This document shows, piece after piece, positions 50,421 through 52,404 of a DNA stretch of 64,000 nucleotides. The DNA comes from Chloroflexota bacterium (GTDB lineage: Bacteria; Chloroflexota; Dormibacteria; CF-121). The DNA lies in assembly GCA_034666565.1 (NCBI GenBank), contig JAXDLN010000036.1, forward strand, positions 32,079 through 96,078. The letters are read 5' to 3'. The position numbers and the translations under genes are program-made. The notes beneath the pieces were generated by a model. It saw only the letters and a program-made list of their open reading frames with translations, did not search any database and had not been told where the DNA came from. How positions within the stretch are numbered: position 1 is the first letter of the stretch; each line of letters opens with the position of its first letter.

Positions 50421-51521
50421 TTAGACCACGTTCCGTTCGGGCTGCAGGCCGCCGGCGCCAAAGCGATCGGGGGCAAAGGCGTTGAGATCGGCGGTCGGTG
50501 CGCCGTCGCTCATCCAGCTCGCCAGCCAGCGGCCAATCACCGGCGCCATCATGAAGCCGTGGCCGGAAAAGCCGGCCGCGATCCACAGTCCGGGCTTAAG
50601 CGGACCGATCAGTGGCTGGAAATCCGGCGTGTTCTCATAGAGCCCCGCCCAGGCGGACTTGACGCGGGCGTCGAGCAGCGGCGGCCAGCGTCGCTCCGCG
50701 ACCGCGGTGATGCGGTCGAGGAACGACCAATCGACCGAAGTGTTGTCGCTCGGTGGCGTGGCGAGGTCGCTCATCCCGAACAGCACGCCCTCCCCCTCCG
50801 GGTGGAAATAGAACGAGGTATGAAAGTCGATCGTCATCGGACTCCGCCGGCCGATGCCATCGAAGGGCTCGGTCACAAAGACCTGGCGAGGGGAGGGCTC
50901 GATGGGGAGCGCCAGGTCGAGCATCGCGCCCACCGCCGCGGACCATGGGCCGGCACAGATCACCGTTTCGGCGCAGGGGAACTCGCCGGCGGTCGTCATG
51001 ATGCCGCCCACGGTTCCACCCGCCGTGAGGAATCCGTCGAGCGGCGTGTCCTCGTAGATGACGGCGCCAAGGCGCCGCGCGGCATTCGCATAGCCAGAGG
51101 TGACTTCGTTCGGCCCCGCGAGTCCGTCGCTCGGACAGAAGGTCGCGCCGCAAAGATCATCGGTGCGAAGGCCTCGCACCATCGCGCGTGCGTCCGCCGG
51201 TGTGAGCTCGACCACGTCCTCCATTCCGAGGCGACGCTGGAGCCGGACGTTCTCGGCGAAGCGCTGCCGCTCGTCGTCGGTCGTCAGTAAGAAGAGGTAC
51301 CCGACCTGCCGAAAGTCTGCGGGCTGGCCCGTCTCCGCCACAAAATTTGCGAGCACGCGCTTGGCCTCCATCCCAATGCGGATGTTGACCTCGGTCGAGA
51401 ACTGGGCCCGAATGCCACCGGCGCAGGCGGCGGTCGCGCCCTGACCGATCTTGCCCCGATCGACGACGACCACTCGACGGCCGGCGCGGGCCAAGTGGTA
51501 GGCCAGGCTGCAGCCCATCAC
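50421..51521 (-). CDS. FAD-dependent oxidoreductase, DAO family (possible gamma-glutamylputrescine/amine oxidase); N-terminus unresolved
   Basis: The listed GTG start gives MMGCSLAYHLARAGRRVVVVDRG. The in-frame upstream sequence RPDVAIVGAGVMG completes the GxGxxG Rossmann motif, but it is preceded directly by TGA and has no canonical start codon. Confidence 0.65.
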   Translation of the reverse strand: MMGCSLAYHLARAGRRVVVVDRGKIGQGATAACAGGIRAQFSTEVNIRIGMEAKRVLANFVAETGQPADFRQVGYLFLLTTDDERQRFAENVRLQRRLGMEDVVELTPADARAMVRGLRTDDLCGATFCPSDGLAGPNEVTSGYANAARRLGAVIYEDTPLDGFLTAGGTVGGIMTTAGEFPCAETVICAGPWSAAVGAMLDLALPIEPSPRQVFVTEPFDGIGRRSPMTIDFHTSFYFHPEGEGVLFGMSDLATPPSDNTSVDWSFLDRITAVAERRWPPLLDARVKSAWAGLYENTPDFQPLIGPLKPGLWIAAGFSGHGFMMAPVIGRWLASWMSDGAPTADLNAFAPDRFGAGGLQPERNVV

Positions 51522-51543
51522 CCCCGCGCCGACGATGGCTACA

Positions 51544-52404
51544 TCAGGCCGTTGTTCCGAGCTTCACCATCCCGATGTACTCGAAGATGAACTTGAGGGC
51601 GGCCAGGCTGGTGACGTGGCCAACATCGAGCGGCGGCGAGACTTCATCGACATCGAGCCCGGCGAGCCGCACGCCGCGGAGCTGGCGAAGGAAGTCGAGG
51701 AGCTCGCGCGAGGTCAGCCCGCCGGCCGACGGGACGCCGGTCCCGGGGGCGATCGAGGGATCGAGCGAGTCGATGTCGAGCGAGATGTGGAGGGCATCCC
51801 CGCCGATCCGGGAGCCGATTTCGTCGGCGAGCTGACTGCCGGTCCAGCGGTGCGCGGTCGCGGCCGTGACCAACGTAATCCCCGTCTTTCGGATGAACTC
51901 CACCTCTTCCCAGTCGTAGTCGCGGCATCCCAGCAGCGTCACCTTCCTGGGATCGATCTGCCCCATCTCGAGGCCTCGCCGCAAGGCGCAGCCGTTCGAC
52001 CACCGCGAATGGCGAGAGGAATCATTCAGATCCGGGTGCGCGTCGACATAGAGGATGCTCAGCCGTCCGTTGAGGCGGCGTTGCTGCGCGATCAGCGTCG
52101 GGCTCGCCGTCGTGTGGTCGCCGCCAAGGACAATCGGCAGCGTGCCGGCCGGCGTCCTTTCGATTTCCCTGGCGACGGCATCGACATTCGCCCCCATGTC
52201 GCCGTCGATCAGCGTCAGATCCCCGTCATCCTGGACCGTGACCGTGTCGAACAGTTCGGCCTGCTCGCTGACCGGCGCGAAGATGGCGGAGAGCTTGCGC
52301 AGCGCCGCCGGCGCCTTTGCGGCACCCGGCCGGTAGAAGGACCCGCGATCGATCGGCACGCCGAGGATGCGGATGTCAGGCGCCGCGCCGGCGGCGGGCG
52401 GCAT
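51544..52404 (-). CDS. agmatinase/arginase-family ureohydrolase
   Basis: Mn-binding motifs GGDHT, DAHPD and SLDIDSLDP. Start chosen at MPPAAGAAPDIRILGVPID (ATG 52404), which is also the only candidate clear of the upstream hydrolase gene. The longer ORF extends to 52512. Confidence 0.75.
   Translation of the reverse strand: MPPAAGAAPDIRILGVPIDRGSFYRPGAAKAPAALRKLSAIFAPVSEQAELFDTVTVQDDGDLTLIDGDMGANVDAVAREIERTPAGTLPIVLGGDHTTASPTLIAQQRRLNGRLSILYVDAHPDLNDSSRHSRWSNGCALRRGLEMGQIDPRKVTLLGCRDYDWEEVEFIRKTGITLVTAATAHRWTGSQLADEIGSRIGGDALHISLDIDSLDPSIAPGTGVPSAGGLTSRELLDFLRQLRGVRLAGLDVDEVSPPLDVGHVTSLAALKFIFEYIGMVKLGTTA

Follow-up and report, generated by a model that had tools for sequence, protein, structure and literature searches.

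How can an oxidase gene be translated when its reading frame offers no start codon ahead of its FAD-binding motif? This question is raised by a gene junction in the window, which is the whole 64-kb stretch of DNA that was analysed. Both genes lie on the minus strand, a ureohydrolase upstream and a DAO-family oxidase downstream. The features of the junction are as follows.

51544..52512, minus strand: agmatinase-family ureohydrolase ORF (Pfam Arginase PF00491, E 9.7e-68)
51573-51557, minus strand: invariant RNA-level element GGGAUGGUGAAGCUCGG, 17 nt, in the last ureohydrolase codons (G-M-V-K-L-G)
51566-51564, minus strand: TGA, upstream limit of the oxidase open frame, a +1-frame stop inside the invariant element
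51547..51563, minus strand: two-frame overlap of 17 nt (0 frame, AAG CTC GGA ACA ACG GCC; +1 frame, AGC TCG GAA CAA CGG CC)
51546-51544, minus strand: TGA, 3' end of the ureohydrolase ORF (...ATG GTG AAG CTC GGA ACA ACG GCC TGA)
50421..51545, minus strand: DAO-family FAD oxidoreductase CDS, 374 codons from Asp, stop TAA 50423-50421
51522..51545, minus strand: oxidase codons D-V-A-I-V-G-A-G, Rossmann beta1 and the first two glycines of GxGxxG
51516..51521, minus strand: first canonical start codons, GTG-ATG (V-M of GVMG), the protein start chosen by gene callers

By its Pfam match the upstream protein belongs to the Arginase-fold family as a whole, and the domain ends at residue 312 of the 322 in the ORF. 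Its closest solved relative is the guanidinobutyrase 3nio, and it missed the NCBIfam cut-offs for agmatinase in the narrow sense (PRK02190, 175 bits against 302; TIGR01230, 145 against 174). Its true start is probably GTG 52455-52453, which overlaps the stop of the upstream hydrolase gene as GTGA. The oxidase is covered over its full length by Pfam DAO (PF01266; model positions 1-353 of 353, E 3.9e-78), including VAIVGAGVMG. Its closest solved relative is 1y56_B, annotated as a sarcosine oxidase (E 1.7e-59), and no NCBIfam equivalog cut-off was reached. Position 1 of the DAO model aligns at the Asp codon GAT 51545-51543, which overlaps the ureohydrolase stop codon and lies eight codons upstream of the first canonical start; all of the D-V-A-I-V-G-A-G codons are 5' of every canonical start codon. 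Gene calling gives about 100 of the 120 best database relatives a length of 365-366 aa and an MGCSL N-terminus. These entries are annotated in an N-terminally truncated form, without beta1 and half of the FAD-binding motif, and the 365-366-residue models, together with expression constructs made from them, would be wrong.

[quoted passage not shown] Across the junction its frame reads TGG TGA(51566-51564) AGC TCG GAA CAA CGG CCT GAT GTA GCC ATC GTC, followed by GGC GCG GGG GTG(51521-51519) ATG GGC TGC, which translates as W, the stop and then SSEQRPDVAIVGAGVMGC; the part after TGA 51566-51564 encodes SSEQRPDVAIVGAGVMG. The ureohydrolase stop overlaps the codons CCT GAT (Pro-Asp). From the in-frame TGA 51566-51564 to GTG 51521, the oxidase frame contains no ATG, GTG or TTG, and an ATC is found at 51536-51534. 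An ATG at 51544-51542 overlaps the ureohydrolase stop (TGATG), but TAG comes directly after it. The original prediction had described an oxidase frame with VAIVGAGVMG, +1 to the agmatinase frame and with no start before GTG 51521, and all of these statements hold; the ATG-GTG that it placed eight codons ahead of the agmatinase stop in the other frame was located at 51570-51565, eight and seven codons before that stop. A start-free stretch of 12 codons in one genome alone is not unusual by chance, and it is conservation that sets this junction apart. The remaining gene junctions in the 64-kb window have ordinary starts.

Some 80 related loci, taken from independent MAGs and metagenomes, were compared at the junction, with 72-78 of them used per analysis. 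About 70 distinct junction sequences share the same start-less, +1 arrangement, and they come from dozens of independently assembled genomes or contigs with 75-92% protein identity. The distance from the stop to the first Gly falls into four classes (16, 22, 31 and 34 nt), all of them equal to 1 mod 3, so that every start-less junction is +1. Another frame relation occurs only with a canonical start, as the GTGA overlap in L016, L049, L086 and L089, and in the outgroups. A canonical start near the stop was found only in the outgroups and in the tip lineages L016, L049, L056, L086 and L089. Conservation of a start-less +1 overlap across species, which is looked for in programmed +1 frameshifting, is therefore present in this junction set. 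The outcome that the original prediction had named as its possible undoing, orthologs with the same arrangement and a clear alternative start, did not occur: the arrangement recurs, and no clear alternative start accompanies it.

The start-less oxidases are under selection. In the start-less clade dN/dS is about 0.14 at dS of about 1, and the 374-codon frame is intact in about 100 loci readable to the stop. Codons ahead of the first canonical start vary almost exclusively synonymously across relatives; within D-V-A-I-V-G-A-G, the V, A, G, A and G codons show synonymous changes only. In the longer length class, six additional upstream codons are likewise under protein-level selection, and indels occur only in multiples of three. 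These patterns show that the codons preceding the canonical start are translated and under purifying selection. Variation in the overlap also fits +1-frame coding from CGG 51551-51549 on, where Arg is encoded by all four CGN synonyms. The Arg of R-x-D-V is not invariant in the family (distant homologs have Q, S, T or E), so it is the synonymous pattern that makes the case for +1 translation from 51551.

The outgroups L022, L024, L027 and L028 have TGA-N-ATG/GTG at the corresponding place. Basal ingroup lineages have ATC or GTC where this start codon was, and other lineages have GGA or CGN, the latter with all four Arg synonyms. What used to be the start is therefore read as a sense codon today, which places the entry of translation farther upstream. 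Ordinary GTG starts return only at a few tips of the start-less clade. This distribution shows that the start-less state is ancestral to a large clade of Dormibacterota.

The element GGGAUGGUGAAGCUCGG strongly resembles a Shine-Dalgarno sequence, GGA(U)GGUGA. Across 72 unique junctions, the entropy at its fourfold sites (in GGG, GTG and CTC) is zero; background fourfold sites (n=94) have a mean of 1.1 bits, and only 1/94 is at or below 0.15. By parsimony, the fourfold sites of the element changed 0 times, compared with 5-15 changes at ordinary third positions. With a canonical anti-SD tail, GGGAUGGUGAAGCUCGG forms a duplex of -11.4 kcal/mol, compared with -5.1 and -2.1 for the outgroup equivalents; against the same canonical tail it pairs as strongly as the real ribosome-binding sites in this operon. 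The element is confined to the clade that lost the start codon, and the outgroups have the synonymous GGCAUGGUCA where the start-less clade has GGGAUGGUGA. Its distance to the stop is fixed at 17 nt despite an 18-nt indel just downstream. Taken together, the comparison shows that the gain of this RNA-level element coincided with the loss of the start codon.

Ribosomes have to reach the oxidase frame within the overlap 51547..51563, whose length is 17 nt in all start-less loci. We hold with moderate confidence that the oxidase has no initiation codon of its own and would be decoded by programmed +1 ribosomal frameshifting in this overlap, giving a ureohydrolase-oxidase fusion. Ribosomes translating the ureohydrolase gene would pass the SD-like GGGAUGGUGAAGCUCGG, and a fraction of them would slip to +1 between the +1-frame UGA 51566-51564 and the 0-frame UGA 51546-51544. 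There are two candidate shift sites: AAG/CTC 51563-51558, directly 3' of the rRNA-mRNA duplex in a prfB-like geometry, and the last sense codon before the stop (NNC; GCC 51549-51547 in the window), where UGA would occupy the A site as it does in antizyme and prfB. Shifted ribosomes would read on through ...(R-P-)D-V-A-I-V-G-A-G to give a predicted fusion of about 690 residues, and non-shifting ribosomes would terminate and release the ureohydrolase alone. The predicted tryptic junction peptide would be LGTTADVAIVGAGVMGCSLAYHLAR for a shift at the stop, LEQRPDVAIVGAGVMGCSLAYHLAR at CUC and SSEQRPDVAIVGAGVMGCSLAYHLAR at AAG. From sequence comparison we infer frameshifting as the route, the role of GGGAUGGUGAAGCUCGG and the fusion product, and both shift sites are candidates.

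Several observations were counted for frameshifting. No start lies upstream of beta1, and all start-less junctions are +1; the start codon of the outgroups has turned into a sense codon in the ingroup; GGGAUGGUGAAGCUCGG is found only in the start-less clade at its fixed distance from the stop; and dN/dS of 0.14 denotes strong purifying selection. No near-cognate start codon is conserved among the start-less junctions. The ordinary starts at the other junctions of the window imply that start codons are not generally dispensable in this organism. The base before the ureohydrolase TGA is C in 72/72 start-less junctions, whichever amino acid is encoded there (A, S, T, P, G or D): short-class loci mostly have UCC, GCC, CCC or ACC before UGA, and AGC, GGC or GAC is found in others. 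The invariant C would allow G34-U re-pairing after a +1 slip, and antizyme is known to shift to +1 at UCC-UGA and at CCC-UGA (PMC1874602). Among the four explanations offered in the original prediction, ribosomal frameshifting thus came out as the best supported, by comparative inference and with two candidate shift sites.

Other observations count against it. There is no classical slippery site at the junction. AAG-CUC-G is invariant in the start-less loci but does not belong to the known slippery sequences, and after a +1 slip CUC-G and AAG-C would pair poorly. For a shift at the stop, the codon in the P site differs between loci, and 14-17 nt separate the SD-like core from the last sense codon, compared with a spacing of 3 nt in prfB (PMC12421855). 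A short spacing fits AAG/CUC alone, and the codon that would then occupy the A site is ordinary sense (GGA; in the longer class GGC). NNC-UGA is conserved, yet by the coding signature ribosomes seem to enter the +1 frame before they reach it: in the short class CGN 51551-51549 behaves as a translated +1 codon, which argues against a shift at the stop codon itself. No in-frame Arginase-DAO fusion was found among the best 150 of 1.84 billion representatives. A word-indexed database search with the conceptual fusion also returned no Arginase+DAO protein, a weak negative since it returned no ureohydrolase matches at all. P0325, the sole match that spans the junction, is fragmentary and carries several indels. 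In neither length class did RNAalifold detect a conserved 3' stem-loop or pseudoknot, nor did a single-sequence fold (z = -1.84); a long stem in the window depends on GCG GGG codons absent from other loci, and an Rfam search gave no match. The hydrolase gene of the operon also has no nearby start in part of the clade, with the frame varying there, which hints at a frame-independent mechanism. The 64-kb window contains no prfB gene for comparison. In the literature library that was searched, no paper connects Dormibacterota and frameshifting, and the GeneTack survey has no mention of agmatinase, arginase or sarcosine.

The main alternative, possible but more tentative, is initiation or re-initiation without a recognisable start codon, directed by GGGAUGGUGAAGCUCGG, to give a free oxidase that begins x-R-P-D-V-A-I-V. 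The SD-like element would hold terminating or newly bound ribosomes, which would initiate about 9 nt downstream, at 51554-51552, whatever codon is present. In the close relative L056 and the proteins P0035, P0037 and P0053, R-P-D-V is preceded by a GTG or ATG located exactly 9 nt downstream of GGUGA. In start-less loci this codon is hypervariable (CAA, AAA, AGA, CAC, CCA, GAA), and the +1 signature begins at the next codon. The pairing of GGGAUGGUGAAGCUCGG with the canonical anti-SD, the start-less hydrolase junction with its varying frames and the lack of natural fusion proteins among the 150 best representatives also speak for such initiation. However, the codon at the presumed start is never even near-cognate in start-less loci, and Hecht et al. 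reportedly found in 2017 that in E. coli such codons support initiation at no more than about 0.1% of the AUG level. A newly evolved site should keep a start codon, but the actual codon is the most variable of the region, and the former start position of the longer class lies 21 nt away from the element. Moreover, a start codon is required in every described case of translational coupling (PMC12548453, PMC6728339).

Initiation of the oxidase at a weak or internal codon (ATC 51536-51534, GTG 51521 or ATG 51518), with beta1 truncated or missing, is improbable. ATC is a rare start codon, gene callers pick ATG 51518, and the GxG codons just before this ATG form the strongest anti-SD site of the operon in the window. 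This SD-like GCGGGGGTGATG reaches -15.8 kcal/mol in the window, but only -2.7 in its commonest variant among relatives; the site is not conserved, and one locus has ATC instead of ATG. A GTG or ATG start would lose beta1 and two glycines of GxGxxG, although the domain aligns from DAO position 1, and the synonymous variation of D-V-A (and of the six codons in the longer class), with indels in multiples of three, argues that these codons are translated. Initiation at ATC, which the original prediction had proposed, is unlikely because only M-V would be left before GxG, the codons upstream of it are selected and L007 and L051 have GTC in its place. That the oxidase is a decaying pseudogene, as its absent start codon could suggest and as the original prediction had also considered, is very improbable, and is refuted by dN/dS of 0.14 at dS of about 1, the near-synonymous changes before the canonical start, the intact 374-codon frames with a full-length Pfam DAO match and a start-less state that persisted from the ancestor while the clade diversified. 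A sequencing or assembly indel that hides a normal start, the remaining explanation of the original prediction, for example a TGATG overlap that a 1-nt insertion would bring into frame through ATG 51544-51542, is scarcely credible and is refuted by the recurrence of the junction, identical or with substitutions only, in independent assemblies (VB.. Angelo MAGs, SMAG, KAP bins and JGI soils) and by the many relatives with TGAC or TGAG, hence without that ATG.

Five further candidates were rejected. Read-through from an upstream +1 ORF is excluded, since many loci have a further +1 stop 10 codons upstream with no start between. Peptidyl-tRNA hopping from GCC 51549-51547 to GCC 51539-51537 fails because relatives with UCC, ACC and the like have no matching landing codon. 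For transcriptional slippage there is no conserved homopolymer, GGAAAAACGG being present in some loci only. An alternative genetic code does not agree with the normal starts and ends of the other genes in the window, and for a leaderless mRNA from an internal promoter the -10-like TACATC is not conserved.

To our knowledge, few chromosomal, non-mobile bacterial genes need programmed frameshifting, with prfB, dnaX and copA as the main examples. If frameshifting is correct, the junction would be a new, clade-wide cassette that joins two metabolic enzymes, with an invariant signal of its own that does not match the prfB rules. If initiation free of a start codon is correct, it would contradict the start-codon requirement in bacterial translational coupling. 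We regard it as rather doubtful that the junction is either a metabolite-sensing recoding switch of bacteria or a new mode of gene expression. In the first case, an antizyme-like +1 shift at NCC-UGA or beside the SD-like element could respond to polyamines or guanidino-amines from the ureohydrolase, and the shift efficiency would set the ratio of free ureohydrolase to the ureohydrolase-oxidase fusion. In the second, post-termination ribosomes held at an internal Shine-Dalgarno sequence could re-initiate independently of a start codon, and the aldehyde-dehydrogenase/hydrolase junction of the same operon might do so as well. Apart from the mechanism, comparing a junction across independent assemblies separates assembly errors from recoding in MAGs.

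Among known systems, the junction resembles a Listeria phage PSA case, in which Zimmer et al. reportedly found in 2003 a +1 frameshift at CCC-UGA. In PSA, as would be the case here for a shift at the stop, bacterial ribosomes slip to +1 at an NCC codon ahead of UGA and a C-terminally extended protein results. PSA differs in that phage structural genes and a downstream pseudoknot are involved, whereas the codon in the P site varies at the present junction and the folding analysis detected no structure. In prfB, as here, a +1 ORF2 without its own start overlaps the end of ORF1, which ends at UGA, and a hyper-conserved internal SD-like sequence 5' of the site is followed by a Leu CUY codon (PMC12421855, PMC5009743). 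The prfB cassette consists of an SD-like sequence, a 3-nt spacer, CUU-U, UGA and C (PMC12421855). The present junction has the SD-like element, but lacks the CUU-U slippery run, and its SD-like core is 14-17 nt from UGA instead of 3. ORF1 here is a complete 300-residue enzyme and not a 25-codon leader, and autoregulatory logic via RF2 is not evident.

Antizyme, of the ornithine decarboxylase system in eukaryotes, shifts to +1 at the last sense codon before UGA (PMC1874602, PMC5009743). The window has GCC-UGA-U at this place and close relatives have UCC-UGA-U or CCC-UGA, the latter two identical to antizyme sites; both systems have a conserved sequence on the 5' side, and the upstream gene here belongs to guanidino-amine/polyamine metabolism. 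The antizyme shift is promoted by polyamines and by agmatine, and polyamines have the same effect on the RF2 shift (PMC1874602, PMC5009743). The two systems differ in that there is no homology, the 3' pseudoknot is absent, the host is bacterial and the comparative signal of the short class suggests +1 entry upstream of the stop. In the Mg-chelatase chlD-type clusters of GeneTack, two full-length, separately annotated genes are joined by a conserved frameshift, as is proposed here (PMC3711429, PMC9227772). Those clusters have in-frame fused homologs in other genomes and experimental frameshifting, whereas for the present pair no in-frame fusion was found among the best 150 representatives and the shift is proposed from sequence. 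In termination-reinitiation coupling (ATGA, GTGA, TGATG), the upstream stop and the downstream N-terminus coincide as they do here (PMC6728339, PMC12548453). Its defining start codon is missing in the start-less clade, where the oxidase has no ATG, GTG or TTG at or within a few nucleotides of the upstream stop, but this coupling is exactly what the outgroups and a few tip lineages use (TGA-N-ATG, GTGA).

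The oxidase of the window lies directly downstream of the ureohydrolase (the agmatinase of the original prediction), in the +1 frame, and this start-less junction is both real and conserved, while standard decoding does not account for it. Both genes belong to a seven-gene operon whose content, judged from family names only, resembles that for catabolism of guanidino compounds or of arginine via a guanidino-acid hydrolase. Its features are as follows.

Gene 1, (-) strand: class-III aminotransferase, Shine-Dalgarno (SD) AAGGAGG and ATG
Gene 2, (-) strand: aldehyde dehydrogenase, ATGA overlap, SD AGGAGGTG
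Gene 3, (-) strand: alpha/beta hydrolase
Gene 4, (-) strand: ureohydrolase of the Arginase fold (Pfam PF00491, E 9.7e-68), GTGA overlap, stop TGA 51546-51544
51573-51557, (-) strand: invariant SD-like element GGGAUGGUGAAGCUCGG, zero variation at fourfold sites in 72 unique junctions
Gene 5, (-) strand: oxidase, full-length DAO-family FAD oxidoreductase, 374 codons in the +1 frame, Pfam PF01266 at model positions 1-353
Gene 6, (-) strand: SurA-like lipoprotein, TTG start
Gene 7, (-) strand: LigT-like phosphoesterase

The ureohydrolase falls below the curated agmatinase cut-offs, its closest solved structure is a guanidinobutyrase, and its Arginase domain ends at residue 312 of 322. Its 3' end is ...TTC ATC TTC GAG TAC ATC GGG ATG GTG AAG CTC GGA ACA ACG GCC TGA. 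The +1 frame reads TGG TGA (51566-51564) AGC TCG GAA CAA CGG CCT GAT GTA GCC ATC GTC GGC GCG GGG GTG ATG GGC..., that is, W, stop and SSEQRPDVAIVGAGVMGC. The original prediction had described an intact dinucleotide-binding motif without an upstream start codon, and its statements on the sequence all proved correct when frames, stops and codons were re-read in the window. The earliest ATG, GTG or TTG in the oxidase frame is GTG 51521 (the Val of GVMG). The PF01266 match begins at the Asp codon GAT 51545-51543, overlapping the ureohydrolase stop, and the closest solved structure is 1y56_B. The neighboring Val codon (51540-51542, (-)) is GTA both here and in roughly half of the loci of the short class (16 nt from TGA to the first Gly codon); GTA is 1 of the 111 Val codons counted in four operon genes, and GTG occurs at this position in none of about 50 unique sequences. 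GTA and TGAT together create ATG-TAG in the third frame.

When the extended oxidase served as the query of a protein search, thousands of relatives were retrieved. Of the best 120 (73-91% identity), about 100 carry annotations of 365-366 residues beginning MGCSL, an equally truncated call; 13 of the 120 are longer, with N-termini M/V-RPDV..., MSSAVRADV... and similar. The identical ureohydrolase protein was found on one 866-kb JGI soil contig. The comparison covered 31 loci from genomes (Dormibacterota or "Chloroflexi" MAGs produced in several studies) and 80 from metagenomes. The tblastn alignments begin at query residues 1-7 in most loci; therefore, the region ahead of the first start codon is kept in frame. 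[quoted passage not shown] One database protein from the representative library (P0325, 143 aa) apparently links the C-terminus of the ureohydrolase to the N-terminus of the oxidase in a single frame; it was rejected as a natural fusion because it is a low-quality fragment whose join was produced by several indels (MVKLENGLTSSSSGAGVMG...).

With the T of the ureohydrolase TGA (51546) numbered 0, the distance from TGA to the first Gly codon is 16 nt in the class that includes the window, where TGA overlaps the P-D codons, and 34 nt in a longer class with six extra codons (D-R-A-R-H-A). Spacings of 31 and 22 nt are rare, and all four are 1 mod 3. The outgroup loci L022, L024, L027 and L028 (65-69% identity) have an ordinary coupled TGA-N-ATG/GTG with the start at +4 to +6. 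In the 34-nt class, this position holds ATC or GTC in basal lineages and CGA, CGC, CGG, CGT (all Arg) or GGA in others, and the R, H and D codons after it also vary synonymously. Therefore, what used to be the start is now decoded as sense, and ribosomes must enter the frame no later than the GAN codon that overlaps the stop. In a neighbor-joining oxidase tree, the start-less loci form one clade, with the 34-nt class basal and the 16-nt class nested within it. A canonical start was regained only at isolated tips inside this clade: as GTG at -8 to -6 in L056, through a 4-nt insertion giving a GTGA overlap in L049 and L016/L086/L089, and with another gene upstream of the oxidase in L015/L054. 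The insertion is identical (ACG-TGAG-GCC) in two separate clades, which points to parallel change or recombination. A lone start-less variant, L083 (Ga0209526_10013165), differs in geometry: its ureohydrolase ends CGT TAG, the first Gly codon follows at 22 nt, and GTT takes the place of the GTG start of its relatives; its oxidase is also +1.

Synonymous variability drops sharply over the last ~15 ureohydrolase codons. The fourfold-degenerate sites of GGG (-27), GTG (-21) and CTC (-15) show zero variation in 72 unique start-less junctions and 0 parsimony changes on the tree, versus 5-15 changes at ordinary third positions; 94 comparable fourfold sites in the 300-nt flanks on each side average 1.1 bits, only one being at or below 0.15 bits. 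The 5' part of the element, GGA(U)GGUGA, pairs with the canonical 16S anti-SD tail at -11.4 kcal/mol, ~3.3 standard deviations below the operon background, and its counterparts in the outgroups, GCCAUGGUCA and GCGAUGGCCA, reach -5.1 and -2.1; all duplex energies refer to this tail, whose sequence was assumed. The element lies 17 nt from TGA in both length classes. It is present in every start-less clade member and the start-regaining offshoots and absent from the outgroups; thus, its gain coincides with loss of the start codon. This coincidence is the strongest pointer that the element supplies the substitute path by which ribosomes reach the oxidase frame.

Downstream of the invariant block in the 16-nt class, -11 to -9 is semi-variable, and -8 to -6 is hypervariable (CAA, AAA, AGA, CAC, CCA, GAA). 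Positions -5 to -3 hold CGN, each of the four synonyms being represented (13 parsimony changes at -3 versus 3-4 at -5 and -4); CCU, GCU or ACU at -2 to 0 comes next, and then a series beginning GAN, GUN. In the ureohydrolase frame, first positions vary while the third positions at -4 (G) and -1 (C, 0 changes) are nearly fixed, which is the opposite of the 0-frame prediction and matches +1-frame coding. A possible reading is that the +1 frame is already translated at Arg 51551-51549, in agreement with R-P-D-V as the N-terminus of relatives with a start. This Arg is not invariant across the family, so that it is the synonymous pattern that carries this reading; alternatively, the pattern may reflect an RNA-level shift-site motif, NCG-NCC-UGA. 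We somewhat favor frame entry upstream of -5 over entry at the stop codon.

The element might direct initiation or re-initiation ~9 nt downstream without a start codon, a serious alternative to frameshifting that we consider the less likely of the two. That distance leads to the exact GTG position in L056, and a hypervariable codon followed by conserved coding would be accounted for; the failure of protein database searches to find a natural in-frame ureohydrolase-oxidase fusion is mildly favorable. However, non-cognate codons would have to serve for initiation, and we know of no precedent for this. A newly evolved start should also be conserved, yet the codon there is the most variable of the region. 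In reviews of translational coupling, a start codon is always presupposed (PMC12548453, PMC6728339). Initiation at weak internal codons is essentially excluded. The GxGxxG codons GCG GGG GTG ATG (51516-51527, (-); GCGGGGGTGATG) form the strongest anti-SD-binding sequence of the operon (-15.8 kcal/mol), which probably explains the gene callers' choice. The site preceding this ATG is at background level (-2.7) in most relatives, and ATC replaces the ATG in one locus; therefore, it is an annotation trap rather than a conserved start. The sequencing error and the pseudogene offered in the original prediction are both essentially excluded, the former by ~70 distinct start-less junctions in loci from several studies and the latter by a median pairwise oxidase dN/dS of 0.14 (median dS 0.96) within the start-less group and by the D-V-[AV]-I-V-G-A-G-V codons upstream of the first canonical start, which change almost only at third positions.

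Within 50386-50409 (-), the SurA-like gene probably starts at TTG 50409-50407, which would give the protein a lipoprotein signal peptide (MRRAVLLMVLGGALSAC); in the source annotation it starts at ATG 50388 instead. In the region 53345-53190 (-), the alpha/beta hydrolase gene likewise lacks a canonical start close to the conserved N-terminus of its product, T-A-V-I-T-Q-N-I-Q-F-I-D-V-G. The dehydrogenase stop (TAA 53281-53279, (-)) is separated from an invariant block, NCCGCGGTC, by 0-5 nt in 44 unique related junctions (loci L002-L096); hence, the frame is not constant (+2 in 30 junctions, in-frame in 11 and +1 in 3). ATG, GTG and TTG are absent from the next 20 codons. Upstream, the sole candidate is a GTG at a distance of 23 codons, formed by the dehydrogenase E-W codons; the in-frame class lacks it, its hydrolase ORF directly following TAG, and in the +2 class ATA overlaps the stop (ATAA/ATAG). 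Several window genes, such as those with ATG starts near 15241, 38827, 35668 and 56982 (-), have a TAGACT-like -10 box 6-8 nt upstream without an SD, which suggests that leaderless mRNAs may be frequent in this organism beside genes with strong AGGAGG sites.

Programmed +1 frameshifting from the ureohydrolase accounts for all six observations that any mechanism has to explain: no start or near-cognate codon, a strict +1 relation where start-less, codons translated at the stop or ahead of it, acquisition of the SD-like element with start loss, persistence over long divergence and normal starts elsewhere (ATGA, GTGA, TTGA, TGATG or SD with ATG at other window junctions). From the sequence comparisons, a new programmed-frameshift cassette is the likeliest reading, and we put its chances at about even. 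No paper linking Dormibacterota with frameshifting was found in the literature searched, and agmatinase, arginase and sarcosine go unmentioned in the GeneTack survey of conserved frame transitions. Ribosomes arriving from the ureohydrolase gene would shift into the oxidase frame, yielding a fusion in which ~10 residues join the Arginase domain to oxidase beta1.

One candidate site, AAG/CUC, immediately follows the SD-like duplex on its 3' side, and the invariance of the element stops exactly there. The prfB shift is driven by short SD-to-P-site spacing (PMC12421855, PMC5009743), and AAG/CUC resembles it in adjoining the SD-like duplex; against this site are an ordinary sense codon in the A site and poor re-pairing. 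The other candidate is NNC, the final sense codon, at the point where UGA occupies the A site. The C before UGA is invariant, so that G-U re-pairing would be possible after a slip, and UCC-UGA and CCC-UGA are proven antizyme +1 sites (PMC1874602); against this site, the element is 14-17 nt away and the Arg-codon pattern is unexplained. RF2 +1 frameshifting is stronger with polyamines, and antizyme frameshifting responds to polyamines as well as to agmatine (PMC5009743); therefore, a metabolite-responsive shift at the ureohydrolase/oxidase junction is conceivable by analogy.
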